A stretch of 64,000 nt of DNA from Candidatus Latescibacterota bacterium (GCA_965226795.1 CBDDDZ010000005.1:1952001-2016000); one strand, 5' to 3'. Numbered from the stretch's first letter, positions 7,220 to 34,945 are shown. Numbers and translations: made by a program. Notes: generated by a model not told the origin, from the letters alone.

Positions 7220-7770
7220 TCAGCGGGGCGGCAATGTCGACATCCGACCTCTCATTTGTTTAGCTACTCGGCTGAGGGGTACGGGGGGAAGAAGCGAGGT
7301 ATTTGCGCCGCAGGGCCACTCGACTTCCGTCCTACGAGTGTCGACGTTGACCAGTTTCCCATCGAAATGTGCAACGCTGACTGTGAACGACAAACAGCCG
7401 TCGATGCAAACGTGAGCGTAGCTCCTTTCGTCAAAGGCCGTATACACCATTACCGCACAACACATTCCTTTCGCCTTAAGATAATGGATAGTCGCGAAAA
7501 CAGTTTCGCCGTCCCACGCGACGTGAAACCACTCGAAAGGCGAATCTAGCAATTTCGGATCAAGGGAGTCTTCGCTATTGAGCAATGGGCGAACGACGTT
7601 TCTGTGAAGCAGACACTCCTTCGGAAGTACGGTCTGATCGTACTTGAGCTTATGCCTTTCGCTGGCCCTGTCTTGGCCTCCGTACGTACGGTACAAAGCA
7701 CCCAGCATTGAACCGTTAAACCAGCCCGATTTGTCGTTGATATATGGGTATCCATTTTGCCGGAACAATC
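7220..7770 (-). pseudogene. Probable 3' fragment of an unknown gene cut by the IS insertion
   Basis: Open frame runs up to the CTAG at the IS left end (7771); no recognisable motif. Confidence 0.35.
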
Positions 7771-10838: not shown

Positions 10839-12725
10839 TCACATTCGGACCACCTCTTGGTCCTCGAACCAGCCAACACTGGAGATATGGCTGGCGACCT
10901 TGTCCGCCTCTTTCGTGTACACAATCACGGCGAGGCTCCGCTGAGCCCTGCTGCAAGTAACGTAGAAGAGACGTCGGGTTCTGTCTACGGATGTGTCCTT
11001 CCCTTCACGCCGGTTCTTTTCATCTGTGTTCGTCGGAGCTTTCGCCCCAAGCAACTTCTCATAGCTGAACATGAAACCGCGGGCTTCGTTGTCATCGAGG
11101 ATGACCATGACTCGCGGGAACTGAAGCCCTTTGATGCCTTGATGTGTTCCGAAAGGCGACCTGTCAGAGATGTACTCTGCATAGGCTTCGAACTGACTGA
11201 ACGGGACAGCAAGCGCTTCCCGCCAAGCATCGACCTCAGGATTCCTGTCGTCTTCCGCATCTGCGGGAACTGACTCTACCTCTTCTCCCTGCCCATCAGA
11301 GTCGGACAGGATGGGCGCAAATACATCGGGGATACCGAACAGGCCCTCGTGATCGACTACCTCGAGAATATCCAACAGGATGGGATCTGCGCCATCGTTC
11401 CACAGGGAGAACATGGACTCCACAGACCTCCCAGCCTTGCGGATTTCCTCTAATGAAGTCGTGCTTCCGCTCAGTCTTTCGGGAGACATGATCGGGGAGT
11501 AATCCTTTACGACATGAGCCACAGCAAACCTATCTTCGGATTGCATGGCTTGAACCAATGGAAGAACCTGCTGTGCGAAGAAAGCAATCCCATTCAAAGT
11601 CCCATCAAGCAGACCGGTCCTGAATTTGTCAATGCTGTAAAGCGACTCAAAGAAACGGTCGAAGCCACCCCTGCGCGCGGCCATGTGATGCTCAAGGGTA
11701 AGTACTTTGACCGCCTGTGCGCTCATCCATTCGTCATCGGAAGTGACCTCTGCCATTATCCTGGCCGCTTTCGCTTCGACTTTCAGTTTGTCTAAGTCGT
11801 CAACGTCATTGATTAGAAGCAGTCGCACAACCCCTTCTTGCGCGTCTTGTCTGGGCATCTGCTGTGCGCCGTCCGCTTCCGATCTGATCCGGTTGAGAAG
11901 CGTCACAATTCGTTTGGGACACCTGTGGTTGACGCCAAGCGCTGGTTTCTCCCAGCCTGCCGGGACAGCCTGCTCCAATCCGACTTTCCCGTCCGCGTAA
12001 ATGCGCTGCATCGTGTCACCGAACAGACACAGACTGAATTGGTCGGGATGCTCTGCCTGGAGGGCAAAGAATGCGTCAATCAGGTCTTTCTGAGTGTCCT
12101 GGCTTTCGTCGATGAGCAGGACTGGGTGCTTCCGAATCAGTATCTGACGCATGAGTGGCTTGTCGGAGAGAAACGCTGCTGTGATTGCTATGACCTCAGC
12201 GTGGTTCAGTGAGTTCTTGCCGATGTTTTCGCCGTTTGGGTTGTAGGTGAACTGCTTGATGACATCGAGATGCTGAAGTCGATTCCGCTTTGACTCAATT
12301 TGTACTTCTCGCTCACGGGCTGCCTTTGTTCCCGGCCTCCCGGACGCTTGCTTCTCGCGAAGTTCAGCGATTTCGTTGGACAAACGTAGGCGGAGACAAG
12401 CAGAGATGTCTTTGTGGTATGTGCGGATCTGCTCCCAAGCAAAACTGTGGATCGTGGACACGGCAAAGATGGGATCGAAATCTGTTCTGCGCCTAATCTC
12501 ATCACATGCGGCATTGGTGTAGGTTATGACAGCAACTTTCTGGCCCGACTGCCGGAACTGCGTGCCATAGCGGATCCGAAAGATGTCCATTGCCTCAATG
12601 ACCGCCCTTGTCTTGCCGGAGCCAGCGCCGGCATAGAGGAAGAAGCTCTTGGGCTTCTCCAGGTCGAGACACGCCGCAATCGTCTTTCTGAGTTCATCCC
12701 CTTGAGCGACTGCCTCAGGCATCAT
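10839..12725 (-). CDS. gajB: UvrD-like helicase, Gabija GajB-type
   Basis: AGAGSGKT, IDESQDT, FGDTMQRIY, THQGIKGLQF, RRLFYVTCSRA; directly after an OLD-family nuclease. Confidence 0.88.
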   Translation of the reverse strand: MMPEAVAQGDELRKTIAACLDLEKPKSFFLYAGAGSGKTRAVIEAMDIFRIRYGTQFRQSGQKVAVITYTNAACDEIRRRTDFDPIFAVSTIHSFAWEQIRTYHKDISACLRLRLSNEIAELREKQASGRPGTKAAREREVQIESKRNRLQHLDVIKQFTYNPNGENIGKNSLNHAEVIAITAAFLSDKPLMRQILIRKHPVLLIDESQDTQKDLIDAFFALQAEHPDQFSLCLFGDTMQRIYADGKVGLEQAVPAGWEKPALGVNHRCPKRIVTLLNRIRSEADGAQQMPRQDAQEGVVRLLLINDVDDLDKLKVEAKAARIMAEVTSDDEWMSAQAVKVLTLEHHMAARRGGFDRFFESLYSIDKFRTGLLDGTLNGIAFFAQQVLPLVQAMQSEDRFAVAHVVKDYSPIMSPERLSGSTTSLEEIRKAGRSVESMFSLWNDGADPILLDILEVVDHEGLFGIPDVFAPILSDSDGQGEEVESVPADAEDDRNPEVDAWREALAVPFSQFEAYAEYISDRSPFGTHQGIKGLQFPRVMVILDDNEARGFMFSYEKLLGAKAPTNTDEKNRREGKDTSVDRTRRLFYVTCSRAQRSLAVIVYTKEADKVASHISSVGWFEDQEVVRM

Positions 12726-14972
12726 TTACCTCTGCCACCTCTGTCGAGATAGCGTCAATCTTTCTCGCCTCAAGGTTTTTCTCAAGCCACTTGAGGCCAT
12801 CCGCGATGTAGTTTGGCGGTTCTATAGCTGGTCCGGCTCACTCAGGTAGAGTAGCTCCAAGGCCAACTCAGCCTTGCTGCCCTTCTCCAAGTCGGAAAAC
12901 ATATCGTTGCTGGCATCTTCGAGGGTGTCCTTTCTGAGAGCCGCTTGGAGCTTCTTCAATAGGCCTACCGGTTTTGCATACCCCCGGAAAAGCGCAAGAT
13001 TCGTCAAGGCCAGTGAATCCTCAAACGTATAGGGTATCGCCTCTCCTTCACTTTCACCCTCCTTGTATTCCACAGTGATAGGGCACTGGTATGCGACCCT
13101 GACGAGCCCATCCGCTGTCTGTTTCGCGTTATCCGGCAGATCGAGCAGATCATCAAGTGGTTCCTTCTTGGGCACCCAGTCCTTGAGTGTGGTGTTTCCT
13201 GTTCGGTAGCCTTTGCCGCGCTCCGGACGGGCCTTGGCAGTGTCAGTTTTGTGAATCGAGTCCAAGTCTGTAACGACCAGAGACAGAAGCCCAAGAGTAT
13301 CCAATAGTGGTTTCAAACGATGTGCATGGGCGCCCCCGATCTCAAGAAGCGAGATGTAGCTTTGGTCCAGCTTGGGGAACTTCTCCCGGACGAAGTGGGG
13401 AATCAACATGCGTTCAGCCGAACCCTCCACGAGGATGGCCGCATCGGCGAAAAAGAGATCACAATGGGTTGTCCGAAGATAACGAGTGGCAAACTTCGAG
13501 GTCTCATCGTGGTCGCCGAACGTCTGCGAGAGATTGATAACCGTTGCCGTGGGAATCTCCCCATTCTTCTTGGCTGGTTCCCGACGGAAGTAGCGCAGGC
13601 AAGAGAAGTCCAGTTCATGAGCAATATGTGATGAGTGAGTGCTGACGATCATCTGCGTGCTGAAGGAAGAATCCGCAGGCGCAGCGTGGCGCCGGAGCAC
13701 TTTGTAGGCTTTTTTGATGAATACCTGCTGAACCTGCGCGTGCAGATGAGCTTCGGGTTCTTCAACAAGTACGACGTGCAAGGGTTCAATAGCAGCACCC
13801 TTGGTGTCTTGACTCTCGGCCGCTTTCCCAATCCGCATCCATTCGTCCCTGAATCGGATCAGGTTGAATACCATCGAGATGAGGTTCTGGTAACCCAGTC
13901 CGTTGTATTTCTCGGGCAAGGACAGCGAGTCTGCTCCAGGCAGGTCGAACTGTACTGCGGCCTCGTGATCAAGGCTGTCGCGTGGATCGATCTTGCTTGT
14001 TATGGAGATTTTCGGGTCACTGAATCCCGGATAGTTGAGACCCTCAAGTTCTCCAATGGCAGGCTTGAAGCTCGTCTTTAACGTCTCGTTGAATACCGTT
14101 TTCGCCGCTTCGATCGCCTCCAGAGCCTCGATATCACTCGCCTCCGGGGCCTCTGATGGATTCAAGTGCTTGGAGAAGCAACGGCGCAGCTGAGTCGAAA
14201 GGCTTGCAAAGCCACTGTGTGACTCATCTTCTGTCTTGGGATCGGAAAAGCCTCTTTGGGCAGTGATTACGTCAATCTTGATGAGACCATCGAATGGATG
14301 CTTCTTGAGCGGATCGCTGCCGGGCGGAAGCGACTGAGGCTTGGCGATTCCCTGCACCGGATCTTGGCGCTGCGTGGGGTCGAGAATGTAGGACTGGACT
14401 TCGAACTGGCTGTGAAGCCGTCTGTCCAGAAAGTCCCTCATTGAGTTTGGCCATAGAGACGGCGGTGACTTTGCGTTGGTGGAAGCTAACTCGGCGGCAC
14501 GTGCCGATTTGTAAGCGCTTCGGAAATCCTTGTAAAGTTGCTCCATGTTCTTTGGTGCTAACACAAGCCTGACTCCCAGCAATTCCCTGGGTGTCCAATC
14601 CAGTGTAGGGAGAAGATGCGCGACACGGTGAAGGTCTTTTTCGTCGGCTGTGAGCCAAACATCGATGGAGGGTAGCAGGGGTAGCAATGCGTCAACGGCG
14701 AGTACTGCTTCTTCATTGTCGGCGGAAGCCACCCACTGTGCTCCGAGGTGATTAAAAGACGACCAGTTTGAAAGGGTGAAATCCGTGGTAGCAAAGGCTT
14801 TGCGGCGGCTCTGCTTGAGAAAGAGGATCAGAGCATCCATTGCGGATGTTTTGCCGCTATTGTTCGCGCCGACGAAGATCGTCTCCTGTTGCGCGATCTC
14901 GACGCGGCATGCCTTCAGCTTCCGGAAGTTCTGTATCTCAACAAAGGCAATGTGCACTCGATATTCTCCCAT
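12715..14972 (-). pseudogene. gajA: OLD-family ATPase/TOPRIM nuclease, Gabija GajA-type, frameshifted near the C-terminus
   Basis: GANNSGKT, EEPEAHLH, STHS, VEGSAE, TDLD motifs. The ORF stops at 12822; removing 2 nt (TA) at ~12823-12826 restores EPPNYIADGLKWLEK...DA* ending at 12715 and overlapping the gajB start. Confidence 0.82.
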
Positions 14973-15013: not shown

Positions 15014-17091
15014 TCAAAAAGCCACCAATCTCTCCCCGAATTCGACGCGGAGATTCCATTTCTTCGTCGTATTTAGGGCTGGCTCAAGGCAGACGAAGAT
15101 GCCTTCCATGCCTTTGAGTTTGGCGATTGTCTGTTCCTTCAGATCGTAGTCGAGGCAGACTGTCGCCTCCTTGTGAGAGTCCCACGCGCGGAAGACCACG
15201 TTCTCGGTGAAGTCGGCAAGGGCTTCCGTCTGAACATCGAGCATAAAGCCGTTCTTGAGGAGGACTTCTTGAAGAATTCCCTCCTGGTCGAACGTCATCA
15301 GAAACGCTGCTTCCTTCTCCCGGATATAGGCATCAAGGGCCTCCAAGTTCTCCTCATCCGTCTTCTCTGGATCTGGCACGAACTCGGTTCGGGGAAAGCG
15401 AGACTTGGCGAGTTTGTAGACCTTGAAACCTGGGCGATCGGCGGTGTTCTGCTGAGGGGCGATTCCGGGCAACCGTTGTTTGGCATCGCGGTCCGCCGTA
15501 TCTGCCGTTTCGTGCAACTGCGCGACAACCCGTCTGTTCCGCTCAATGGTAATGTCCGATATTCGGCGATAGCCCTTTTTGTATGCGGGAGTACCCTCGT
15601 CGATGATCTCTGGAATCTGCACGAGAATGAAGGTGCGCGCCCCGCCACTTTTCGCGTTGATTTCCATGACAGCCTGACCGGTCGGGCCTGAACCTGCGAA
15701 GAAGTCTAAGACAAGGTCGCCGGATGTTGTCACATACTCAATAAGACGTGCGAGAATCTCATGGTCTTTTGGATTGTCGAAAATCTTTCCGTCTAGGAGC
15801 TTGCGAAGGTACTTGATCGTCACTTGCGACTGTTTGTATAGAACACTGGGCATGACCTGGAGCCCCATCTCTTCCTCACTACCGTTTTCGTCCGCGTCTG
15901 GCTCGTCGTCGAGGAGTTCCTCCGGGACCGGGATCAAGTGCGCCTTTCGCATAGGTGGTTTTGTGTGGTCCTCACGAAACATGACGAGTCCGAGGTCGAT
16001 CTGGCGTTGCATTGACTCAGAAGTACTGAAACGCCAGCCACTCTCTGGTACCTCACATGATTTTCCCGTGTCAGGATGGATCACGTCATAGCGGGGCCCG
16101 CCTCCGCCAGGCCAAGAAATGTCTCTGTCACGCCACGGTCCCCACTTGTCGATTTGTTTATACCTCGAGAGTTTCTTCGACGGATGCTTTGTTGGGAGAT
16201 CCTTGTACCATTGACGAAGCTCCGTCTCCATGGCCCCATAGTCCTCTCCGTGGACTTCCTTGAGCTCCAGCCACTTTTTGCAGATTTCTTTCGCCCCCGG
16301 CTTCTGCTCACGCCAGACTGTCTTCAAGTCTTTCAAATGCTGGAGGTCGCGAGCGTAGCAGACAACATAGTCGTGCCCCAAACTGAACAGCTTTGCATCG
16401 TTCTTCCGGGTCTTCTCCCATGTGAGCTGAGCGATGAAATTTTCCTCGCCGAAGGCCTCGTCGCACAGCCTGCGCAGGTGATGCGCCTCATTGTCATCGA
16501 TCGATATTAAGATGACGCCATCGGGAAGCAGGAGCTGTCGGGCAAGGAGCAAGCGGGGATAGAGCATGTTCAGCCAGTTGGAATGAAAACGGCCGTCACT
16601 CTTCGTGTTGGTGTCAACTTTCACGCCATCTGCAGTTACCCCAATGTGTTCCCAGTATGTTCCTCTGTCTTCCTTCCATGTGTCGGAATATACGAAGTCC
16701 TTGTCCTTGTTGTACGGCGGATCAATATAGATGCACTTGACCCGGTTGCGGTAGGAGGCGAGCAGACATTTCAAGACTTCAAGATTTTCTCCTTCAATGA
16801 TGGCGTTCCCCTCGGCAAGCCCTGGATTCACAGAGCGCTCGTGATTGTACTCCAAAGATGCGAGCGTCGGCGTGAAGGCGTTGCGCTTCGCGTCGGCCTT
16901 CCCAAACCAACGGAATTCAAAGCGCTCCGACTCCGGCACCAAGTCGGGATCGATGAGGCGTTTCAGCTCGTCCGGGTTGAGAGAGCCCCATCGTTGGTAA
17001 ATAGATCCGGCATAAGCGCTCGGAGTTGCTCCAGACGTTCCTGGTTCACATCCGGCGTGGCCGGCATTCGGTCCATAATGGCCTTGTTCAT
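15014..17091 (-). pseudogene. mod: Type III RM Mod adenine methyltransferase with a 5' frameshift
   Basis: IYIDPPYN and DFFAGSG motifs in beta order. N-terminus MNKAIMDRMPATPDVNQERLEQLRALMPDLFTNDG starts at 17091 (ATGA overlap with the YhcG gene) and is out of frame with the body at GAGAGAG 16979-16985. Confidence 0.85.
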
Positions 17092-18284
17092 AACTTGCCT
17101 TCTTCGTTCTCGGAGCGCCATTTCAGAAGCAGTCTGCGGAGCTCTTCCCTGGGCGGGAGTTCCAGCTTGTAACGACTGGCGAAAATACGCTCGTTGCCCT
17201 TGTCGAGCACGTATTCAACGACGGCGTCGTTCTTGTCGGTGCAGAGGATCAAGCCAATCGTAGGGTTGTCCTCCCGGGTGCATACTTCACGATCAAAATA
17301 GTGAACGTACATCTGCATCTGGCCGATGTCGCCATGAGTGAGCTTTTCTGTTTTCAAGTCGATGATCACATAGCACTTGAGGCGCACGTGATAGAAGACC
17401 AGGTCCGCATAGAAATGGTCTCCATCCAGCGTGAGTCGTTTCTGTCGGGCCACGAAGGCAAATCCAGCCCCTAATTCCAGCAGAAACTCCTGCATGTGGG
17501 TCGTAAGGGCCGCCTCCAGATCGCTTTCGAGCAACCGATGCGATTCAGGAAGTCCGAGAAACTCCAGGGCATAAGGGTCTTTGATGATGTCGATGGGGTG
17601 TTCGGTCGCCTGTCCTTCATTGGCGTGTTGCAGCACACCGTCCTTGTCGCGGCTCTTGAGCAGGCGTTCAAAGAGCAGGGTGTTGATCTGTCGTTCAAGC
17701 TGCCGCTTGTTCCAGTGGTTTCGAGCGGTTTGCTGTTCATAGAACTGCCGCGCTTCGTCGTTCTCGACGCGCATCAGCGCGCGATAATGCGACCAGCTCA
17801 GATCGGGATGGAAGCCGGTTGCGGATTCAACGCCCGTTGGGTGCTGTTTTGGTGTCAATTCTCCGCCCGGTGGGTGGGGATTTCCGCTCTTGCCTAATTC
17901 TCTACCCACTGGGGAGAGAATCTTTTGCTGCCTGAATTCTCTCCCCGACGGGGAAAGAATTGCCGCGGCGCGACCAGTGTACGTTTGATAGAACTTCCGC
18001 ATATTCCACAACGATACGGTGGAGTAGCCCTTGCCATAGCGTCCCGTCAGCCGCCTCGACAGATCCTCAATTACGGCCTTGCCGTAGTCAGCCCGTTTCT
18101 GTCCCTTCTGCTCTTCCTCAACGATTTCACGTCCGATCAGCCAATATGCCACCACCATCGCGCTGTTGACCGTTCGGGCGACATGACTGCGTGCTTCCTC
18201 GAGAATGTCGACAATCCGACCGAATAGCGCGGTATCGTCTGGAGCCGGGGTATTCGGGATCTTCTCCCGAACTTTGTCAGGCAT
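17088..18284 (-). CDS. YhcG/DUF1016 PD-(D/E)xK nuclease family protein
   Basis: YWLIGREIV, LSWSHY, KDPYALEFL, FLLELGAGFAFVARQ, IIDLK, GQMQMYV; internal linker has short repeats (ILSPSGREF / ILSPVGREL). Confidence 0.93.
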   Translation of the reverse strand: MPDKVREKIPNTPAPDDTALFGRIVDILEEARSHVARTVNSAMVVAYWLIGREIVEEEQKGQKRADYGKAVIEDLSRRLTGRYGKGYSTVSLWNMRKFYQTYTGRAAAILSPSGREFRQQKILSPVGRELGKSGNPHPPGGELTPKQHPTGVESATGFHPDLSWSHYRALMRVENDEARQFYEQQTARNHWNKRQLERQINTLLFERLLKSRDKDGVLQHANEGQATEHPIDIIKDPYALEFLGLPESHRLLESDLEAALTTHMQEFLLELGAGFAFVARQKRLTLDGDHFYADLVFYHVRLKCYVIIDLKTEKLTHGDIGQMQMYVHYFDREVCTREDNPTIGLILCTDKNDAVVEYVLDKGNERIFASRYKLELPPREELRRLLLKWRSENEEGKL

Positions 18285-18933
18285 GCGTGACTCCATTGGC
18301 ACGAGTCTTGAAGACGGAGTACTCCTTGACGGGCGCGTCGTAGTTGACCTGCGCATCGACCCCCAGCGCATGGAAGTGCTTCATGGCGCACTTGATCTTG
18401 TAGACCTCGCTCGCACGAAGTGCCTTCTTGTCCGCAAGCTCGTTCGTGCCCTTTGTTTCAATAACGAAGTAGAACTCGGTCTCTGCGCCGTTGCGCAGGC
18501 GCTTCCGTCGAAGAACAACGCCGAAATCAGGATTGTAGGGGCCGATGGGGGTTGGAATCTGGTAGAAGGCCGGGAGCTTGAGAAAGCAAACGACTTCGTC
18601 GTCGTTGTCCGCAGACCCGGCGAAGTCCCGCTCAATATTGCTGTCGAATACAACACGGTCGTATAGGCCCCGGTTCGGCGTTTCGATGGTGTCCGCGTAG
18701 GTCACGATACTCGGCTCAAGCCGCGAGATGTCGAATTCCTCGCCGCTGGGCGCATAGGTCAAGCCGCGAAGCAGTTCATCCAGTTCAAATTCCCGGATTC
18801 GCGATGACGCTTCGTGAATGAAGCGGGTGGGGTTTGCGGCGATGGCGGCACGGTTGGTTACGTCGCGCAGGATTCGGATCACTGTCGGATAGGCGAGTGT
18901 CGTTCCCTCGCTGATTTCCTCGACCAGATCCAC
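18277..18933 (-). pseudogene. res: C-terminal endonuclease fragment of a type III Res subunit
   Basis: FDSNIE, KLPAFYQIPTPIGPYNPDF, FVIETKG and KIKCAMKHF motifs; helicase domains absent, truncated next to the tRNA copy. Confidence 0.85.
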
Positions 18934-19024
18934 AGCCCCGAACGTGGCACGCAGTCGGCGGCGTTCTCTGTGTCCATGCCCTCCTGAATAATCGTATTAT
19001 AAACAGTAACTTATATAAAATAAG

Positions 19025-19115
19025 TGGCGGATAGGGTGGGATTCGAACCCACGGTACCTGTGAGGGTACACCGGTTTTCGAGACCGGCCTGTTCAACCAG
19101 CTCCAGCACCTCTCC
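19025..19115 (-). tRNA. Second tRNA-Ser(CGA) copy with an acceptor-stem mismatch
   Basis: Full 91-nt copy of 31619-31709 with two differences: CCTATCC for CCTCTCC in the acceptor stem and one variable-arm change. Confidence 0.85.
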
Positions 19116-19190
19116 GCTCGAATACAGGGGCACGCCAGGTTTGATTGCGACTTCCGCCATCCGGCCACCGCAATCAATTCCATCGCTAAG

Positions 19191-19356
19191 TTACGGGTTT
19201 TTCTGGCGCAATTTTTGGAAGAACTGCTTCAGAATCTCTGAACAGGGCGCTTCGAGCACGCCTCGACGAACGTCGATTCGATGGTTGAGCCTCGGGTCAT
19301 CGACGACGTTCCGAAGCGAACCGCAGGCCCCGTTTTCGGGTCGTCGCCGCCGGATC
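19191..19356 (-). pseudogene. tadA: 3' fragment of a divergent tadA allele
   Basis: Aligns to 31799-31964 and encodes CGSLRNVVDDPRLNHRIDVRRGVLEAPCSEILKQFFQKLRQKNP*; indels at its 5' edge. Confidence 0.9.
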
Positions 19357-19424: not shown

Positions 19425-22400
19425 TTAACCCTTCAGCATGGTCTTCACGTAACTGTCCTTGTCCTCTTCCTGAAAAAGGACGTGCCGCCTTTGCATCTCG
19501 CTCTTCTTCATGCCCCACTGTCTGCGCATCGTCGCGGACGGAGTATTCGAGACGATGAAGGATTGCAAGTGCACGGCCGGATCGCCAAGGCGTTGTTCGA
19601 TCTCCTTGATGGTCTCGTGGAACTGGATCTTGAGATCGCCTGGCCCGAGATTCCGGATCCCCTTGGGGTCCACAAAGATGACGTGCTGCTGACCCCCTGC
19701 GAGCAACCACAAGATGAAGTCGGGGTGGAAGTTGCCGGCTTCGAAGAAGCCCACACCGCGGCCCCTGCTGAGGTTTCGTAGCAGATAGAGTTCGCGGGTA
19801 GCGAAGAAGTCCGTATTACCGTCGTGGAACGCCTTCAGATCCTCAACGAACTCGCGCTCGCCCTTGTTCAGCGGTGCGGGGGTGATCTCGACGATTTTTG
19901 TGTCCAGATAGAGCAGCGGCTGGTAGAGGTGCTTGCCGAACCAGATGGCTTTCATGCCCTGGAATTCCCAAGGCTTCAGCTCACCCTTCCGGATGGCGGC
20001 TTTGAGCTCCTCGAGCTTGGCGACGATCTCTTCCTGCGACTTGTCGATCAGGATGCGGTAGTAACCCTCGTCCGGCGAATCCTTCACGCCGAGGAAGTTC
20101 GGGTCGTCGTCTTCAAGGTAACGGTATTCGAGGTGAGGAAGCTCCCACTCGCGCTTTCGGAAGGTGTAGTAGCGCTCGGTGTACTTCTTGAGCAGCGCAA
20201 CGGCGATCTCCTCCCAGAGGCGCACCTTTTCGTAGGAATCACCTACAAGTTCCTCGCGGGGGATCTGCAAGCGATACCAGCTCCGGTCTCCGAGCAGGGC
20301 CTCGACTCCCTGCCGTGTGAGATTCAGGTTGTACCAGCCGCGCTCGGCCTTGAATCGCTCCAGATCGAAGCAAATGCGGTCGAGATCGAGGAAGGCCGCA
20401 TGGCGGGGTGTCAGGTGGGTCTCGTTCGGCGCGGCATCGGCATCGCCGCCAACCAGACCGCCCGACTTCATCGCCTGGATTTTCGGATACCAGTTGAGCA
20501 CCACCTGGTTTTCCTGGAGGTAGACGGTGCTCCGATCACCGGTGGGGTCCGGCGGCCCGACGGTCGGGATGGGCGCGAGCTTGCGAAACGCGTCTCCGAA
20601 CTCGGTGCTTACGCCGTTGATCGTCTTCTTGAGCCGGATCGTCTTGAGCTTCTGCGTCCCAAGGTCCTTGATGACTGGCAGCAAAAACTCGATGCGGTCG
20701 TCGTTGGTGGGTAGTCCCTCCTCTTCGAGGAAGTCCCGGAACTGCGCCATGTAGTCGGCCTGGATGCCGAAGATGCCGAGCGTCTCCAGGACTGCGATGT
20801 GTTTGGGCCGCTCGAAACCATCGGGTAGATCCGTCTTGCCGCTACGCTTGAGGCTCAGGTCGTAGCCCTTGAGCCGAACGCCGCGTCCGAAGAGCTGGAT
20901 GATCTGCGCGCCTTCCCCCTTGCCCACGTTCATCAGGCCCATCGTCGAAACGCGCCAACTGCTCCAACCCTCTGTGAACTTCTTCGAGCCGATCAGCAGG
21001 TTCACCGTGGAGTACGGCTGGTTGATCTCGTGGAAGAGCGATCCCGAGAACTCGCTCTCGTACCTGGCAAGGCCCTTCTCGTCACAGAGTTTCACCAGTT
21101 TGACGTCGTCGCCCACGTTGATGACGCCGAAGGGTTCGTTCTCGGCGCCCAGCCGAAGGGCCACTTCGCCGGTCACGCCCTTCAGGTTCTCCACATATAG
21201 CTGGCCGCCACCGGGGGCATTGAAGACCGTCGCCAACGTCTCGTCGAAGACCTGCTCCGGCGAGAGTCCACAGGTATTGAGATAGGCGAAGCGCTTGGCG
21301 AACAGGTTCTTGCCCGTTGCGGTGACAAGGCCCTGATTGAGAACCCGGTGGATGCGCTGGATGCTGCCGGCGCGTTCGGCTACGTAACCGGCCAGGAACT
21401 GCAATATTTCCACGATGTCCGACGCGTCCTTCTTCGCGAGCGTCGCCGTCACGCTCCCGCCCACGAAAATCCACAGGGGCTTCTCGATGTTGAACGGCCG
21501 AAAGGAGCCTCCTTGCTCAAGGTAGAGCCTCTGTTGCTGGAAGAAAGAGAGCAGGCAGGCCACGAGATACAGGTCCAGGTGGTTCTGTTGTGTTCCCTGG
21601 TCGAGATTGAGGATCTGGTAGTCCTTGCCGAAGCCGTCCGCGTAGAAATAGCGGTACGAGTAGTCACACAGCGTGCTCTTGGCGTACAGCTCGGTGAGTC
21701 TGGGGCTGCCCTTGACCGCTTGCCCGAAGGTGGCGGAGTACTCGAAGGAGAATCCTTTTTCGCACAGCGCATTGCGAAAACGCATCCACGCGCCTTCTTC
21801 TCCTCCGCTGGCGCCGCGGTGCCCTTCATCCACCAGCACCAGGTTGTTCCCCTCGAAGGCGTCGATGGCGATGGTCCTGTCACCCATCTCGTCGCGCAGC
21901 CGGGTCACTTCGATGATCTCGACCGCCTGCCCGCTGAACAGCCCGCGGCCGTCCTTGTTGAACAGCTCTGCGTCGATGCCGGCCGCCGCGAACTCGCGCA
22001 GATGCTGCTGCGAGAGCCCTTCGTTGGGCGTAAGCAGGAGGATGTGGTTCAGCTCGCGCCGCCGGCCATGCCGGTTCAGTGCGTGCCGGTACTGCAGGAT
22101 GTTGGCGTGCATCAGCAGCGTCTTGCCGCTGCCGGTGGCCATCCAGAAGGCCAGCTTGTTGAGCTGCGGCCAAGCCTCGGCGGCTTCGTCGAACGCGGCA
22201 ATCTGGTCGGCCTCGGCCTTGTTCGCGTTGCAGGCGGCCACCTGCTTGTTCAGATCCCCGAGCAGCGCCTTGGGATCACGGAAGTAGCGGTCGAGATAAA
22301 TCTCGCTGAAGAGCAGCGTCAGGTACTGGAAGTACTTCCAGACGATCGGCTCCTCGCCACGGGTGATCCGCCGTTCGTTCAACCGTTGCGTGTGCCTGAC

Positions 22401-22654
22401 TATGTTCTGGTCGTACTCCAGCAGCAGCTCGGTAGGCAGCCGCGTCAGGTTGAAAAGCTGTGCCGTGAGCGCGTGGTGGAAGTGGTGGATGTTGTTCTCG
22501 TCGAGCCCTTCCAGCGCCTCGTTGCGCAGATGCTCGGCCAAGTCCTCGAAACGCTCCACGTTGAAGAGCGAGAGCAGCCACTGGTTGAGCACCAGCTTGT
22601 GGGCGAACGCCACCTGCGGTTTCTTGGACGTGGCTTTAGCCCTCGTCTTCGCCA

Positions 22655-22658
<4 letters not shown>
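19425..22658 (-). CDS. res: Type III-like restriction subunit (SF2 helicase plus C-terminal PD-(D/E)xK nuclease)
   Basis: [34 protein letters not shown]...FVDPKG; start overlaps the mod stop. Confidence 0.88.
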
Positions 22659-25954
<3,296 letters not shown>

Positions 25955-25979
25955 AAGATGTCTTCCTTGTTGACGAAAT

Positions 25980-28211
25980 TCATATGCGGGCGAGCACCTG
26001 TTCGAACCACAGGATGGCCGCCTCGCCCTCTTTTCGCGTAACCTCGTCGACAGATCGACTGTGGCGTATGCCGTTTCGGAGTTCTGCCAACTGGCCGAAC
26101 TTCGCAGACAGCGTCTCCTTATTCACGAATCTCTTCTCGAAATCGTGCCAGAGACTCTTGCTGAGGATGGTATCCTGTAACTCACGCAGATCACAGTACT
26201 CAAGACGTCGGCTCAGTTGCCTGTACTGATCGAGTTCGATGTTGGCGTTCTTCCTTGCAGCAGTCTGGATGCGTTCATCAGCTTTCTGAAGCACGTGCGG
26301 CGGAAGCCGCCCAGCATCGTCTTCGAGTGTTGCGATCACTTGTTCGCGGACAGCGAGCTCAATACCCTCGACCCGTTCGTCCAACTCGCGTAACTGGGGC
26401 GACAGATCGATCCTCTCCTTGATCAGCAGGTTCTCGATCGCCTCCAATAACGTACGCTGGCGCTCGGCAATGAAGGCCTCGTAGTCGTCGGAAGTGAACG
26501 GCTTGCGCAACAGTACGTCCAGGGCCGCCGGTGAGATGAAGTGCGACTCGAGCACGCTGCGCATGGCGTTCGCTCCACTCTGCTCGATCAGCTCCGGCAA
26601 ATATTCGTTCGGGAACCGGTCGCGAATGACCTGTCGATTCGTCTCGGCAGTGAGCGGTGTGCGGTTCAGAATGGAGTGGATCAATCCATCAATTCCGAGT
26701 TCTCTCGCCATCGATGCCGGAATGATGTGATGATCGTCCAGATCATCGTGTTGAGGCACATTTCCGCTCATCCAGTCACGCGCGCCTTGAATAACCAACA
26801 GATTGAAGATGCCGTTATAGACCGACGTGCCGCGCCTGACTTCACGGCGAAGCTCTAAACTCCTGAAGCGCATTCCAAATTCCTGGATCAGCCCAGGTTC
26901 GCTCGCGTCGTCATCCATCCAGGCCTTCAGGTCCAGGAAGTCCCGGGCCGCGGTCGACTCGACAGAACCCGAGTAGCGGTTCAGGAATACCGAGGCCCAG
27001 TACCAATGCCGAATCTTCCGTTGCGCTTGAAGCCTTTGGTTGGGGGGCAAGCCTCTGATGTGGTGTTGGATGGCAGAAAACGCCGGGATGATCGAAACGT
27101 AAGGGAGATAGTTCGAAGAGATCGCCCCGAACTCCTGAGGATGCCGTAAGAGCTTGATCGCACTCTCAATTGCATCGACGGCATCGTTCCAACGATGCGT
27201 GAATGCCGTCGTGTCAGGAACGAGGACTTCCTTGTGGCGTGTCCCATCGGGATCTCGAATCGGTTTCTCCTGTCCGGGAAGAAGGAAGTAGAGGTACTTT
27301 GGCGAGCAGTACCCTTGCCTGAGAATCGACATCACCTGCAAAATGTAGACGTTCATCTTGTTCGAGTCGACGAACTCGAGGCGGGCGGCAGCGTCACGCC
27401 ACATCTGCTTCAACTGCACGCCCTTCGGTCTGAGCAACGCGTTGATGAGGTCGAAGGTGTCGAGCTGAACACCTTTGCTGTTGATTTGCGTGAAAATATC
27501 ACAGACCTTGTCGATACCAAGTTGCTGATCGAGTTCAATATACGAAATCTGGTACTGATCTGTCAGGCCCTTGACGTGCTCGCCAAACGTAGAGCCATTT
27601 TCGGCATACAGAACTGCTTGCTCATATTGGCTCTCCTTGCCGGCTTGCTTGGCCTCGTCCGCAGCCTCGTTCCAGTGCTTTTTGTATCCGTCCACCCACT
27701 CATAGAACGACCACCCGCCGTCGCCGACGACAGCCAACGGAAAGATATGCTCCGCATACTGCTGCTCACGATTGGTGATGAGTTGTGTCCAGCGCTTCGA
27801 CCAATCGTATTCGAACGCGTTGTCGTACTCCTCCGCCATGAAACGGTCGATGCGGACGAAGTAATAGTACCGATTCACGCGTGTGGGCAGTGGGATGTCA
27901 GGCGCCAGAAACGCGTAGTACATGGCGGTAAGTCGCTGCTGTCCGTCCAGCACGATGTACTCGGGTTTTTTTGAACCCTCGTAGCCGTAGACTGGTTCGC
28001 AGGACAGTGCGGCAAAGTTCTCATCCTTGCCCTTCCAGAGCAGCAGGCTCCCAATGTAGTAGTCGAGGAATATCGAGCGCATGAGGTCGCGAACGTCCCA
28101 TGGTTTCCACTCGAACTCGCGCTGAAAGTCGGGAATGACGAAGCGCCCCTCCCGCAAGTGTCCAATTAGCGTGTTTAGGCTGACGTGGTCAGGTTTCTGT
28201 GCATCTTTCAT
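25980..28211 (-). CDS. GmrSD-like DUF262 + HNH (DUF1524-like) protein with C-terminal Swt1-like HEPN domain
   Basis: [17 protein letters not shown] and FTQINSKG (DUF262); DDHHIIP...SILNRTPL...N (HNH); [10 protein letters not shown] (RxxxxH). Confidence 0.85.
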
Positions 28212-28227
28212 ATGATCGTTCTCCAGT

Positions 28228-31146
28228 TCACGTCACCGCCCAGCGGATGGTGAAGAGTGCCTCCGCCTCTATTCGCTGTGCCAGCCGGCGCTCCAGCGAG
28301 TCGATGAGTTGGTCGCGCTTCTCGATGATCTGGTCCTCGGCCTTGAAGATCTCCTGGCGCTGGCGGCGTTGCTGGCGCTCGAGCTTCTGGATCTTCTCCT
28401 GAATCTCGTGCTGCTCGGCGAGCGTGGCCGCCTGCCGCGCCTGACGGCGCAAAGCCTTGATCTGCTCCTTGGTGTCCAGGAGCGCCTTCTCCGCGGAGAG
28501 CACCATGTCGTCAGCCCACCTTTCGAGCTTCTCGCGCGCCTCGTTGAAATGCGTGTTGTTCTGCTCCAGCGAGCGCGTGACCGTGGCCCGCGTGTGGCGC
28601 TGGGAGTCGCCGTCGAGACGTTGCGTCACCGCAGTCGAGATCGTGCCTGCGCCGTCGCCGTCATCGGCGATTCGGCCTGCACAACCGAACAGCTTCTCCA
28701 TCGTCTCCTGGTCGAGCGGCACTCCGGCCTCATCGAAACCGGAGAAAAGCAGGTACTCCTCCCGCTCATAGGAGTCGATCATAAGGCGAGTCAGCCTCAG
28801 ATAACCGGCTTTCCCGCGCAGTGCCTCGATCACGTGGAGACGCGTCGGATGGCTGGTCACGTCGAAGACGATTCGCTCGGGCGGGGTGGAAAGCGCTTTT
28901 GCACCGTCCACGACATGCTCGCCGAGCGGGTGCGCCAAGCGATACAGGAAGACACCCTGGGTCTCGTCGCCGTCCTCATCGGCGCCTGTTCCAGACTTGG
29001 GATGTGACTTCGAGATCAAGTGGTATCGCCCTTTGAGGATCTCGGGACGGGGCGGGAGCTCCAGATCGAAGGCCAGCGCCGCGTCGTCGAACCGTGCCCG
29101 CCCATCGAGCATGAAGCGCGTGAGCGACCAGAACCGCCTACCCACGCGGTCGAGCTGGGCCTGGGCGTCGGCAAGCTGGAGGCGGAGCCGCTGGTGCACG
29201 TCCTCGTCGAAGTGCTCGAAGAGCGTGCGACGGGTGTCGTCGAGCCGCGTTCGGATCTGCTCGTCCATCTCGGCTTGCAGCGTGCGGAAGGCGGCGTCGA
29301 TCTCTTCGGGTGTGCGGCACTGCTGGTAGATGCCCAGGATGCGCTTTTCGAAATCGACACCCGATTCGATGCTGCCGAGCACCTCGTCCGAAGCGCCGAA
29401 AACACCGTTGAAGAGGCTGAACTTCTCGGTTAGAAGCTCCAGGACGCGGCGGTCGGCGTCGTTGCGTTCATTCAGGAAGTTGATCACGACCACGTCGTGC
29501 TTCTGTCCGTAGCGGTGGCACCGGCCGATGCGCTGCTCGATGCGCTGCGGGTTCCAGGGAAGGTCGTAGTTCACGACGAGCGAGCAGAACTGGAGGTTGA
29601 TGCCTTCCGCCGCCGCCTCGGTAGCGAGCAGGATAATTGCCTCGTCCCGGAAGTGCTCGATGAGCGCCGTGCGTACGTCCACCGCCCGCGAGCCTGAGGC
29701 ACGGCCGGTGTCGCGGTTCTCTTCTGCCCAGCGCTGGTAGATCGCGCTGGCCTCCGGCCCACCATTCGTGCCGTTGAAGAGGACGACCTGCCCCCGGTAG
29801 CCATGCGATTCGAGGAAGCCCTTCAGGTACTCCTGGGTCCGACGCGACTCGGTGAAGATCAGCGCCTTGCGCGCGGCGCCCGTCGTGACCATCTGCTCGA
29901 AACCGATCTCCAGCGCCTTGAGCAATGCCTGGGTCTTGGTGTCGATGCCGATGGCGCGCGCCCAAGTGGCGAGACGCTGGAGGACGCCGATCTCCTCTCG
30001 CAGCTTCTGCCGGTCTACGGCGACCGGATGCGCGGGGGGCTGGTCAGCGTCCTCGCTCTCCACGAGGATCTCGTCGAGCAGATCGTCCTCGATTTCCTCG
30101 GCCTCGATGAGTTGCTCCGGGAACTCGGGATCGCTGCTCGCCTGTTCGTCATGCAGCGTCTCGAGGCGTGCCCTCAACGTGTCGAGTGTGGCAGCAATGG
30201 CCTGCGACGACGAGGCGAGCAACTTCCGTAGAATCAAGGCTGTGAGATGCCTCTGCCTCTGGGGGAGTGCGTAACTGTCCTCTCGCTGAAGAAAGCCGGA
30301 AACCGCCTCGTAAAGCGCGTGTTCCTCGTCCGTCGGCTTGAATGGCCGCGTGATCGGGCGCCGCTCCGTGTACCGGATGTACTCCATCACTTCGTTGCGG
30401 AGGGTACGCTTACAAAAGACCGAAAGCCGCTGCTGTAGGGCTTCCAGGTTGCTGCCTGCACTGGCGTACTGAGACCGGAACGAGTTGACATCGCCAAAGA
30501 GACGCTCGTCGATGAGCGTCGAGAGGCCGTACAGCTCAAGGAGTGAGTTCTGCAGCGGCGTCGCGGTCAGAAGCAGTTTGCGACAGTCCTCCGTGGCCCA
30601 GCGGATTCCCTGACCAACCTTGTTCCTCGGACGGTACGCGTTGCGCAGCTTGTGGGCTTCGTCGATGACGACGAGGTCCCAGGCAATCGTCTTGAGTTCC
30701 TCACGCAGGCGGTTCGCATAGTGGTGCGACATAACGACGACGGCATTTGCGCCAAGCGGTGTTTGGCCGCTTCGCCTGGCTTCGCGATAGACCTTCGCGT
30801 CGAGCACCTGCACGGGCAGATTGAACTTCTCCTCCAACTCCAGCGCCCACTGCTTGCGGATGGAAGCCGGGCAGATCACCAGCAGACGGCGCTTGCGTTC
30901 CGCCCAGAACTGACACAGCACAATTCCCGCCTCGATCGTCTTCCCGAGGCCGACCTCGTCGGCCAGGATAACGCCCTTGGAGAGGGGCGATTGCAGGGCG
31001 AAGAGGGCTGCCTCGATCTGATGCGGGTTCAGGTCGACGGCCGCGTCGAATAGCGCCATCGACAGGCGGTCCATTCCGCTGGCGGCACGACGCGTCAGAT
31101 CGTGAGCGAAATACTTCGCGTGGTGAGGGGTGAGCGTCAACTGCAT
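28228..31146 (-). CDS. SNF2/RapA-family helicase
   Basis: LADEVGLGKT, IDEAH, LTATPLQN, EGINLQ, DLPWNPQRIEQRIGRCHR; C-terminal coiled coil. Confidence 0.92.
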   Translation of the reverse strand: MQLTLTPHHAKYFAHDLTRRAASGMDRLSMALFDAAVDLNPHQIEAALFALQSPLSKGVILADEVGLGKTIEAGIVLCQFWAERKRRLLVICPASIRKQWALELEEKFNLPVQVLDAKVYREARRSGQTPLGANAVVVMSHHYANRLREELKTIAWDLVVIDEAHKLRNAYRPRNKVGQGIRWATEDCRKLLLTATPLQNSLLELYGLSTLIDERLFGDVNSFRSQYASAGSNLEALQQRLSVFCKRTLRNEVMEYIRYTERRPITRPFKPTDEEHALYEAVSGFLQREDSYALPQRQRHLTALILRKLLASSSQAIAATLDTLRARLETLHDEQASSDPEFPEQLIEAEEIEDDLLDEILVESEDADQPPAHPVAVDRQKLREEIGVLQRLATWARAIGIDTKTQALLKALEIGFEQMVTTGAARKALIFTESRRTQEYLKGFLESHGYRGQVVLFNGTNGGPEASAIYQRWAEENRDTGRASGSRAVDVRTALIEHFRDEAIILLATEAAAEGINLQFCSLVVNYDLPWNPQRIEQRIGRCHRYGQKHDVVVINFLNERNDADRRVLELLTEKFSLFNGVFGASDEVLGSIESGVDFEKRILGIYQQCRTPEEIDAAFRTLQAEMDEQIRTRLDDTRRTLFEHFDEDVHQRLRLQLADAQAQLDRVGRRFWSLTRFMLDGRARFDDAALAFDLELPPRPEILKGRYHLISKSHPKSGTGADEDGDETQGVFLYRLAHPLGEHVVDGAKALSTPPERIVFDVTSHPTRLHVIEALRGKAGYLRLTRLMIDSYEREEYLLFSGFDEAGVPLDQETMEKLFGCAGRIADDGDGAGTISTAVTQRLDGDSQRHTRATVTRSLEQNNTHFNEAREKLERWADDMVLSAEKALLDTKEQIKALRRQARQAATLAEQHEIQEKIQKLERQQRRQRQEIFKAEDQIIEKRDQLIDSLERRLAQRIEAEALFTIRWAVT

Positions 31147-31256
31147 GGCTGCACCCAGACGAAGTTGGCGTAGGGCGGTTTGGCGGGCATGTAGTCGGCC
31201 CTTATGCCGGCACGGCTGCGGTCGTTGTCGAACGTGTCCGCGTGCGCGATCTCGCC

Positions 31257-31446
31257 ATGAAGTCGAGGATTCATCCGAAGTACAAGACCAGATATCGCGT
31301 TGGGAATTGGCGGGCGTAAAAGCGAGCGCTCGTGCAGCGCGGCGATGTAGCGCTGTGGCACTCTGGCGATGCGAAGGACGCGTGCAGACCGCCGCCGTCG
31401 GGTCACCCCGAGGGTCAGAAACGGTTCTCCGATTTCGCGATCAAGA
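31257..31446 (+). pseudogene. IS5-family (IS903-group-like) transposase N-terminal remnant
   Basis: My translation: MKSRIHPKYKTRYRVGNWRA*KRALVQRGDVALW...GHPEGQKRFSDFAIK; internal stop and truncation. Not called in the ORF track. Confidence 0.75.
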
Positions 31447-31618
31447 AGATGACGAAGACCGGCCGCCGGCGGTGGAAGAAAGCGTCGGGCGAGGATGCTA
31501 CCATGAGCGGAAAGCTGAGCGAACCCGCCACGCCCGTCGGGAATTGAGCATAGAAAGGATACTGTATGATCTACGAATCCGCATAACGCGTCTAGAATGA
31601 ATACTTTGCAAGGATTAT

Positions 31619-31709
<91 letters not shown>

Positions 31710-31798
31710 GCCTCAAACGCGTTGAGCCACCGCCCCTGACACCCCTTCCGTGTTGCACATCTCACAACCCGATTTTCGCCACATGCTGAATCGCGAGG

Positions 31799-32275
31799 TT
31801 ACGACTTCTGCTGACGCAGTGTTTGAAAAAATTGCTTCAGAATCTCAGAACAGGGCGCTTCGAGCACGCCTCGGCGAACGTCGATCCGATGGTTAAGCCT
31901 CGGGTCATCGACGACGTTCCGCAGCGAACCGCAGGCGCCCGTTTTCGGGTCGTCGGCGCCGATCACCAGACGGGACACCCGAGCCAGCACGAGCGCGCCC
32001 GCGCACATGGCGCACGGCTCCAGCGTGACGTAGACCACGCAATCCGTCAGCCACATCATTCCGGTGCCCGACGTTGCGGAACGAATGGCCATCATCTCCG
32101 CGTGCGCCGTGGGATCGCCGTCTCTCAGAATACGGTTCTGCCCCCGCCCGACCACCGTTCCGTTCTGAAGAATCACCGCCCCGACCGGCACTTCACCGGC
32201 ATCGCCGGCGCAACGGGCCTCGGCCAGCGCCAGTTGCATTCCGGCTTCGTCCGCATCCGTCAATTCGCGCACCAT
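31799..32275 (-). CDS. tadA: tRNA adenosine(34) deaminase
   Basis: EVPVGAV, DPTAHAE, VTLEPCAMCAGA, DPKTGACGS, LNH. Confidence 0.97.
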   Translation of the reverse strand: MVRELTDADEAGMQLALAEARCAGDAGEVPVGAVILQNGTVVGRGQNRILRDGDPTAHAEMMAIRSATSGTGMMWLTDCVVYVTLEPCAMCAGALVLARVSRLVIGADDPKTGACGSLRNVVDDPRLNHRIDVRRGVLEAPCSEILKQFFQTLRQQKS

Positions 32276-34245: not shown

Positions 34246-34590
34246 CTACGCTTCGACGCGTAGTCGTCCGGACCGCTCCTGCTGGGATTCACGGATGACG
34301 ATGTCCACGTCGCGCCCAAGCGTCGTCAGAAGGCGCAGGAGCCGCTCCATGGAGTACTCCCGAAAGTTGCCTCGCAGCAGACGCGACACATCGGGTTGAG
34401 ACAGCCCGAGCAGTTTCGCCGCCTCCACCTGCTTGAGGCCGCGCTGGCGAATAATCCTGTCGATCCGCGTGACCAGCTCGGCTTTGAGCAGGTGCGCGTC
34501 GGCATCCGGGATTCCCAGATCAGCGAATACGTTTCCGCTGCCGCGTTCGATCTTCACTTTGTCGGTCTTCATCGATCTACCCTCCGCCAT
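34246..34590 (-). CDS. XRE/HTH antitoxin (HigA-like)
   Basis: GSGNVFADLG, LKQVEAAKLLGLSQPDVSRL, YSMERLL; overlaps the toxin gene. Confidence 0.9.
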   Translation of the reverse strand: MAEGRSMKTDKVKIERGSGNVFADLGIPDADAHLLKAELVTRIDRIIRQRGLKQVEAAKLLGLSQPDVSRLLRGNFREYSMERLLRLLTTLGRDVDIVIRESQQERSGRLRVEA

Positions 34591-34945
34591 AGTTCTCGCG
34601 ATAGTGTTGCTCTGCCGCTTTCAACCTAAGCCTGATCAGGTCGATTTCCCACTTCGGGGTTGCGATGCCCCGCCTGGCTTTCTTCTGGAAGGCATGCAGC
34701 ACGTAGATGGCTGCCCTGAACCGGACCGTGTACACCGTCCGAAAGGTACCACCTTCGTGACGCGAGATGACTTCCAAAACGTTACTTCCCAAGCCTCTGA
34801 GTGGCTTGACGTCACGGTGTCTGAGTCCGACCTGTGCCTGATATAGCGCATAGCCGACTATACCCTGCACGGCCTTCGGAAACGACATGAGATCGGTTTT
34901 GCTGGAGCCAATCCATTCGACAGGTTTGGGTGTCTCAGCGGACAT
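34577..34945 (-). CDS. RelE/ParE-superfamily toxin (Gp49/DUF891-like)
   Basis: WIGSSK.DL..FP, FRTVYTV, IYVLHAFQKK. Confidence 0.9.
   Translation of the reverse strand: MSAETPKPVEWIGSSKTDLMSFPKAVQGIVGYALYQAQVGLRHRDVKPLRGLGSNVLEVISRHEGGTFRTVYTVRFRAAIYVLHAFQKKARRGIATPKWEIDLIRLRLKAAEQHYRENYGGG

Follow-up and report, generated by a model that had tools for sequence, protein, structure and literature searches.

Among restriction–modification (R-M) systems of type III is what Murray et al. (2021) termed a "third group," represented by Eco86II and BspHIV, in which an extra helicase-like ATPase is encoded 5′ of mod (PMC8259958). This ATPase carries no nuclease motif and is not homologous to Res, and both systems are of the m4C type. 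Eco86II methylates one strand of an asymmetric site and performs ATP-dependent cutting ~25–27 bp off, for which inverted sites are needed; its extra gene is dispensable for methylation and went undetected in the cutting fraction, i.e., no SNF2 peptides were found (PMC8259958). The job of SNF2 in the >500 type III systems is unreported in the searchable literature. According to the accessible text of Payne et al. (2024; 10.1101/2024.01.29.577857) and of a review (PMC10952713), GmrSD-like genes occur embedded in Hma, BREX, and type I systems. Anantharaman et al. (2013) listed a fusion of ParB(DUF262), HNH, and Swt1-like HEPN domains, with VNG7073 as the prototype, and proposed a PrrC-like back-up model for R-M-linked HEPN domains (accessible portion of PMC3710099). 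Here, we analyzed a locus in a 64,000-nucleotide stretch of a Candidatus Latescibacterota genome (GCA_965226795.1, CBDDDZ010000005.1:1952001-2016000; hereafter the window) which, with high probability, combines an Eco86II-type three-gene type III cassette with a separately mobile GmrSD-like DUF262-HNH-HEPN passenger.

Four uninterrupted minus-strand ORFs fill positions 19425–31146 of the window. They encode, in order of transcription, an SNF2 protein (28228..31146; 972 aa; Pfam SNF2-rel_dom and Helicase_C), the DUF262-HNH-HEPN protein (25980..28211; 743 aa; Pfam GmrSD_N), Mod (22655..25954; 1,099 aa; Pfam N6_N4_Mtase, PF01555), and Res (19425..22658; 1,077 aa; Pfam ResIII). SNF2 and the DUF262 gene are separated by 16 nt and the DUF262 gene and mod by 25 nt, while mod and res overlap by 4 nt. 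The SNF2/DUF262 junction was bridged with zero differences by public contigs from runs X8 and X9, which may stem from the source sample itself, the DUF262/Mod junction by a zero-difference contig of run X1, which comes from another study, and the junction of res with a partial tadA copy by a contig of run X9; no indel was listed between 25600 and 28600 in the public-run contigs compared with the window. A promoter and terminator scan returned 5 and 8 sites versus 3.1 and 11.0 expected by chance, none of them informative. An earlier note on this DNA had described four packed, intact minus-strand genes beside a decayed module, and both descriptions were borne out, the first by the ORFs and bridging contigs and the second by the 5′-truncated res fragment of 218 aa with which the neighboring module begins. 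Its domain assignments were likewise confirmed by Pfam, PADLOC, conserved motifs, and, for HNH and HEPN, fold matches. PADLOC, whose use the note had proposed, assigned Mod to MTase_III (E 1e-193) and Res to REase_III (E 8e-221), with DrmD as the best profile for SNF2 (E 4e-199).

The SNF2, mod, and res genes have counterparts in the chromosome of Escherichia coli NCTC86 (B0915_RS25750-60). Murray et al. reported a single putative type III system in this strain, with an extra helicase 5′ of mod (PMC8259958), and when the chromosome was searched with PF01555 and with the sequence of a canonical Mod, no second type III-like Mod turned up. Since the paper's text gives no locus tag, we equate B0915_RS25750-60 with Eco86II by uniqueness, that is, because it holds the only type III-like Mod found and the paper names one putative system. 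SNF2 is 55% identical to the E. coli gene product over residues 4–971, Mod 39% in its N-terminal part and 34% in its C-terminal part (two segments), and Res 38% over its full length. Both loci thus share the order SNF2-mod-res, likenesses of 55/39/38%, a Mod of ~1,050–1,100 aa, and an SNF2 without a nuclease motif. The present locus differs from Eco86II in its unrelated target-recognition region, in the passenger gene between SNF2 and mod, and in lying on another branch of the Res tree. Two features of the Eco86II/BspHIV subgroup are present, namely a conserved ATPase gene 5′ of mod whose product has no nuclease motif and no homology to Res, and a Mod and a Res that are orthologues of those in NCTC86; this comparison used the NCTC86 (Eco86II) sequences, and BspHIV was likened by its published description. 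Judged by sequence, SNF2-Mod-Res is an Eco86II-type three-gene type III R-M core of the kind already published in 2021 (PMC8259958), and the idea of an undescribed four-gene system does not hold for this core. What did hold is the proposal of an SNF2-associated type III R-M operon, other than DISARM or BREX, with a GmrSD-like nuclease, including its HEPN tail. In a literature search that left most subscription papers outside reach, neither the four-gene combination nor a function for SNF2 came up, and the accessible parts of a BREX survey (PMC12839542) and of the ARMADA preprint (PMC12458937) do not mention the SNF2-Mod-Res trio.

Mod has the motifs DPPY (residues 511–514) and FAGSG (804–808), i.e., motif IV before motif I, and its sequence identifies it as a long type III β-class amino-methyltransferase. 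Between them lies a hypervariable, putative target-recognition region (approximately residues 611–775; 23630..24124, minus strand), where the mean pairwise identity among 45 sequences was 18%, compared to 60% in the flanks, and where identity to NCTC86 was 12%; the catalytic and target-recognition regions were 35% and 12% identical to those of NCTC86, respectively. DPPY is present in m4C and m6A type III Mods alike (PMC8259958). Because the middle of Mod is hypervariable, neither the target motif nor the choice between m4C and m6A is predictable, and base and motif are not transferable from NCTC86, since overall identity is moderate (38–55%) and the recognition region unrelated (12%). Res has the makeup of an SF2 helicase-like ATPase with a C-terminal PD-(D/E)xK nuclease, as read from its motifs, and the Walker A/B helicase and nuclease motifs were intact in 66–67 of 67 orthologues. 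A β-class Mod with an SF2 helicase-nuclease Res is also the makeup of the canonical two-gene type III systems EcoP15I and EcoP1I; unlike these, the locus has the extra SNF2 gene and a Mod whose catalytic motif is preceded by ~480 additional, conserved residues at the N terminus. Among 50,697 phage records, the sole relative of Res was found in Thermus phage phiLo (MH673673.1:18009-20492), with 42% identity over residues 7–844. A second Mod-Res pair of the long-Mod subfamily lies on contig C3 of the same genome (L247:10499-18696), with a Fic gene between the two genes, a res split into two frames, and no SNF2 of the locus family adjoining.

The profiles closest to SNF2 were DrmD and BrxHII, although the protein scored below both NCBIfam DrmD cut-offs (672 versus 950 and 275 versus 610; NF038318 E 1e-201), and no nuclease domain was seen in its 972 aa. 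RapA was the top Foldseek match of the SNF2 model (pLDDT 71, pTM 0.40), and a whole-chain alignment with RapA covered residues 33–972 (Z 16.9, rmsd 18.9, 546 aligned). The C terminus of the model forms a sheet into which a long coiled coil is inserted, the same arrangement as is described for BrxHII and RapA in the accessible text of PMC12839542; for this C-terminal part, the likeness to RapA derives from whole-chain, high-rmsd alignments and a model of pLDDT 71. On this modeling, SNF2 is a RapA-shaped ATPase, and its ATPase motifs were intact in 81–82 of 82 orthologues. As in RapA, BrxHII, DrmD, and ArmA (ARMADA), a core is followed by two alpha/beta regions, the last bearing the long coiled-coil insert, and as in that group there is a pairing with a methylase. 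Unlike these proteins, SNF2 of the locus shows no N-terminal Tudor region in the model, its helicase core beginning at about residue 30, and its partner is a type III Mod-Res without DrmABC or Brx/Pgl genes. A complex prediction for Mod residues 1–480 with SNF2 residues 596–972 scored 0.00 and, run without controls, speaks neither for nor against binding.

We examined the linkage of SNF2 to Mod-Res from both sides. Anchoring on SNF2, the best 80 of 189 GTDB matches gave 71 loci, 62–96% identical and spread over many phyla. In this set, where the sequence extended at least 1.5 kb past SNF2, Mod followed in 67/67 loci, and where it extended at least 8 kb, both Mod and Res followed in 51/52. Anchoring on Res, a search of four phylum samples (1,254 genomes, including four centers) found 47 genomes with a match; 32 of the 43 non-center genomes provided 33 regions, and the other 11, whose matches were fragmentary or lay at a contig edge, were set aside. 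Five of the 33 regions were then dropped for having little upstream DNA or no mod, which left 28 informative loci, three of them repeating SNF2-anchored ones. SNF2 was present in 19 of the 28 (one downstream of res, two partly seen at the region end), broken in two, and absent beside Mod-Res in seven. A whole-genome search of the seven SNF2-less genomes returned no full-length close SNF2 orthologue; one had a 214-aa piece and another a 37% relative. Since Mod followed SNF2 in all 67 informative SNF2-anchored loci while Mod-Res occurs without it, SNF2 depends on Mod-Res and not the reverse, which makes it an accessory and not a required subunit. A rearranged order, Mod-Res-SNF2, was seen in locus L218, and among 5,426 E. 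coli genomes the NCTC86 SNF2 matched 152 and its res 191, each counted separately.

SNF2 has also changed its Mod-Res partners. In 45 intact trios, the Spearman correlation was 0.84–0.90 between Mod flanks and Res and 0.64–0.79 between SNF2 and either, values that are descriptive, as related loci are not independent. In trees of 23 chosen rows, Res of loci L043 and L070 grouped with that of NCTC86 and L217 at 100/100 support, while the SNF2 tree rejected this clade (p-AU 5e-124), and it is from this conflict that we deduce the exchange. The survey thus adds to the published subgroup that its SNF2 is RapA-shaped in prediction, depends one-way on Mod-Res, and has been exchanged between Mod-Res lineages.

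One point sits uneasily with the term accessory: the preserved ATPase motifs, and the fact that SNF2 was never seen without Mod, would suit a closer functional tie. Taken further, SNF2 could be a required subunit for restriction in vivo, a BrxHII/DrmD-like effector arm, and the trio a distinct methylation-based exclusion system. In keeping with this, Mod follows in 67/67 loci, the closest profiles are DrmD and BrxHII, with a C-terminal sheet and coiled-coil layout as in BrxHII and RapA, and in vitro cutting by Eco86II was incomplete without the extra helicase (PMC8259958). We nevertheless consider this version unlikely: intact-looking Mod-Res pairs occur without SNF2 in 7 of the 28 loci, SNF2 has moved between Mod-Res lineages, and Eco86II cut at the position expected of a type III enzyme in a fraction where SNF2 peptides went undetected (PMC8259958).

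The product of the gene between SNF2 and mod contains a DGQQR motif (residues 89–93), an HNH motif (DHHIIP at 493–498, with N516 and N525), and an Rx4H motif (712–717). Its model (pLDDT 93) matched BrxU best (Foldseek E 4e-13; Z 17.7), followed by SspE and DndI, which according to the accessible text of PMC10952713 act in phosphorothioate systems. The HNH and HEPN parts gave no Pfam match, and their assignment draws on conserved motifs and fold matches. For residues 601–743 (25983..26411, minus strand), a VIA-align comparison matched the HEPN fold of AbiF (Z 10.1, rmsd 3.8, 140 aligned), AF0298 HEPN (Z 8.1), and further HEPN entries; as the domain is helical, Z alone is weak, and Rx4H was intact in 31/31 full-length family rows. 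In many relatives, the match breaks off near residue 595, so HEPN is a modular tail added to a GmrSD chassis. By its DGQQR motif, DUF1524-type HNH, and modeled BrxU-like fold, the protein is a member of the GmrSD/BrxU-like family with a predicted HEPN RNase tail. The family is large, with 2,937 matches among 7,995 scored candidates. Set beside the type IV enzymes BrxU (PDB 7P9K), GmrSD, and, in the accessible text of Payne et al. (10.1101/2024.01.29.577857), HEC-05 and HEC-06, the passenger shares the DGQQR NTPase and HNH, has BrxU/GmrSD as its best sequence and fold match, and is likewise embedded in a methylation-based system; it differs from BrxU in its low identity (18%), its extra C-terminal HEPN, and a substrate that is predicted only. 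Its host is a type III system, while the hosts listed in the accessible sources are Hma, BREX, DISARM, and type I. With the VNG7073-type fusion, itself a prediction and likened here by the description in the accessible text, it shares the same domain string, an intact Rx4H, and the link to R-M operons; for the GmrSD-HEPN family as a whole, our literature search found prediction and no experiment.

To place this gene, we surveyed the SNF2-mod slot, a tabulation that the earlier note had suggested. The gap was at most 250 nt, mostly 40–48 nt, in 51 of 68 measurable loci, and the filled slots held unrelated genes; the mod-res gap was filled in 30/56 loci. The slot ORFs (37 of 53 scanned with Pfam) included Fic, YhcG, AlbA_2, AAA_14-DUF4143, AAA_21, RhuM, Abi_2, UvrD, peptidase M78, and others. 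No intact DUF262 homologue was present in the 68 measurable SNF2-mod slots, the nearest being a 61-residue remnant in locus L007, and a distant (25%) DUF262 occupied the mod-res slot of L042. In G008, a genome of the same genus, this cassette recurs at the corresponding site with SNF2 and mod 41 nt apart and no DUF262 gene, and one contig of run X8 joins SNF2 to mod in the same way. Viewed from the DUF262 gene, the best 80 of 151 metagenomic matches gave 79 loci, whose neighbors were classed by BLAST clusters with representatives scanned: 37 had type I R-M neighbors, five canonical type III, one a locus-type SNF2, and 15 no usable neighbor. That single locus, L099, matched over residues 1–394 only. 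Membership of the DUF262 gene in a conserved four-gene system is thus contradicted, with 0/68 intact copies in the slot and one partial case among 79 DUF262 loci. The linkage to mod-res on which the earlier note had staked its proposal stood for SNF2, which Mod follows in 67/67 loci, and failed for the DUF262 gene. These sequence comparisons make the DUF262-HNH-HEPN gene a likely swappable passenger in a variable slot, probably inserted there. The L007 remnant and the N-terminal 394-aa part in L099 show the same family recurring in the SNF2-mod slot, a point that counts against the passenger reading; the passenger is uncommon but not unique. In three further loci, the SNF2-mod slot holds genes without a Pfam or PADLOC match (L035:12929-14188 and L055:12917-14176, 419 aa each; L020:12874-13908, 344 aa), which are candidates for unrecognized embedded defenses.

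The passenger could also be a working part of the whole, in a coupled four-part system where Mod-Res holds DUF262-HNH-HEPN inactive in PrrC style and frees its RNase when a phage inhibitor blocks restriction. The tight operon packing, the intact Rx4H motif across the family, the association of the family with R-M operons in at least 43 of 79 loci, and the PrrC-style model of Anantharaman et al. (accessible text of PMC3710099) would all suit such coupling. Against it, close homologues (61–80% identity) belong to operons of type I, of canonical type III, and of other kinds, and because the subunits of these operons are unrelated, a specific inhibitory contact would be hard to keep. With the sister cassette of G008 lacking the gene and 1/79 homologues behind a locus-type SNF2, we regard coupling as quite improbable.

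How would an Eco86II-type cassette with an inserted passenger work? By analogy with Eco86II, Mod would likely methylate one strand of a short asymmetric site, to m4C or m6A, and Mod with Res, once set sliding by ATP, would likely cut unmethylated DNA ~25 bp away from sites in inverse orientation. SNF2 may act as a motor on double-stranded DNA in the manner of RapA and remove bound proteins, for instance RNA polymerase or spent Mod-Res, that stand in the way of the sliding enzyme, a role suggested by its likeness to RapA and its one-way dependence on Mod-Res, to which we give somewhat less than an even chance. The passenger is likely cotranscribed yet independent in action. Its nuclease, gated by NTP, might attack phage DNA whose modification protects it from Mod-Res, in the way that BrxU works beside BREX, and here the chances seem about equal either way; GmrSD-fold proteins such as SspE and DndI show that not all members are modified-base nucleases. 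The HEPN tail is tentatively predicted to be a back-up RNase that stops the infected cell; if so, type IV restriction and abortive infection would be joined in one protein. A layered defence of this kind, proposed in the earlier note, is plausible, with all three layers conjectured and with precedents in BrxU within BREX and in the PrrC model. A bolder proposal, which we hold to be doubtful, is that DUF262-HNH-HEPN is a two-stage effector of type I and III operons, acting first by NTP-gated cutting of modified DNA and then by RNase-driven abortion, and that the RapA-like SNF2 serves as an anti-anti-restriction motor, freeing DNA of phage inhibitors or RNA polymerase for Mod-Res. Were it true, one construct would hold both effector and motor, with the passenger-free G008 sister as a natural control.

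Turning to the genomic setting, the cassette is framed by two diverged copies of a unit made up of the tadA 3′ end and a complete tRNA-Ser(cga) (19020–19352 and 31614–31961; also in L189, the G008 locus), and the spacers of the two copies are of types that belong to different lineages of the genus. On the downstream side lie tRNA-Ser(cga) (19025..19115, minus strand) and the second, partial tadA 3′ end with its spacer (19116..19352, minus strand), which is joined to the end of res by a junction and spacer of the same type as in G008. On the upstream side, a frameshifted transposase-like remnant (31181..31612, plus strand), 95% identical to the G008 copy, separates SNF2 from the other tRNA-Ser(cga) (31619..31709, minus strand), which sits behind the intact tadA (31799–32275); we take the remnant to resemble IS5-type N-termini. 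The tRNA-Ser(cga) and tRNA-Ser(gga) genes flank the variable region in which the cassette lies; of 14 same-genus genomes, some have this region nearly empty and the rest carry other cargo there. Among 41 genomes, the partial tadA copy was found in the source genome (G000) and G008 only. Their downstream tadA/tRNA copies share a spacer type; their upstream copies differ, that of G000 resembling G013's. We take this to mean that recombination brought in the downstream copy, along with the cassette, from another lineage. Identity to G008 was 95% for SNF2 and 91% for res, compared to 89% for dnaX, values that fit descent or a later exchange of the cassette. No integrase was found in the window; four PF00589 matches lie at least 87 kb away. 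In G008 (L189:4876-10069), a DDE transposase gene splits mod, and res is whole, which fits the rule that a type III Res is harmless without Mod.

Such a setting invites the suspicion that the tadA/tRNA duplication and the four-gene order are chimeric, created when the assembly merged alleles from two strains at a variable tRNA locus. The runs containing the stretch do have many related strains, and in one contig SNF2 adjoins mod with no DUF262 gene between them, but the separate genome G008 has the same duplication and junction, and contigs bridge all three tested junctions, which makes a chimera highly improbable. A locus left over from a truncated DISARM class 1 or BREX type 3 system, to which only the DrmD profile as best match of SNF2 points, has a negligible chance: SNF2 falls below the NCBIfam DrmD cut-offs, the methylase belongs to the β-class type III Mods and the fourth gene encodes a type III Res, assignments that together with the NCTC86 match already contradict it, the genome (95.9% complete) has no match to DrmB (PF09369), and the 12 island proteins scanned included no DISARM core genes and no pglZ, brxC, or PglXI of BREX type 3.

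The Eco86II-type cassette and its passenger are not the only defense genes at this site. The decayed module beside them (15014–18933) is a second type III module of canonical size, with its 5′-truncated res, a YhcG/DUF1016 nuclease (PDC-S02), and a 642-aa Mod, and genome G006 has the YhcG gene behind the same tRNA. A Gabija pair (GajA E 6e-271, GajB E 8e-241) occupies 10839–14972 in the neighboring island. Two ORFs further on (9268–10587, 439 aa; 7220–7768, 182 aa) had no Pfam, PADLOC, or NCBIfam match, and an IS1182-family transposase lies between them. In G008, a Tiamat TmtA gene (L189:15712-18414) follows the second tRNA. On the far side of the cassette, a Gp49/RelE-like gene with an HTH partner (34246–34945), likely a toxin–antitoxin pair, adjoins tRNA-Asn.
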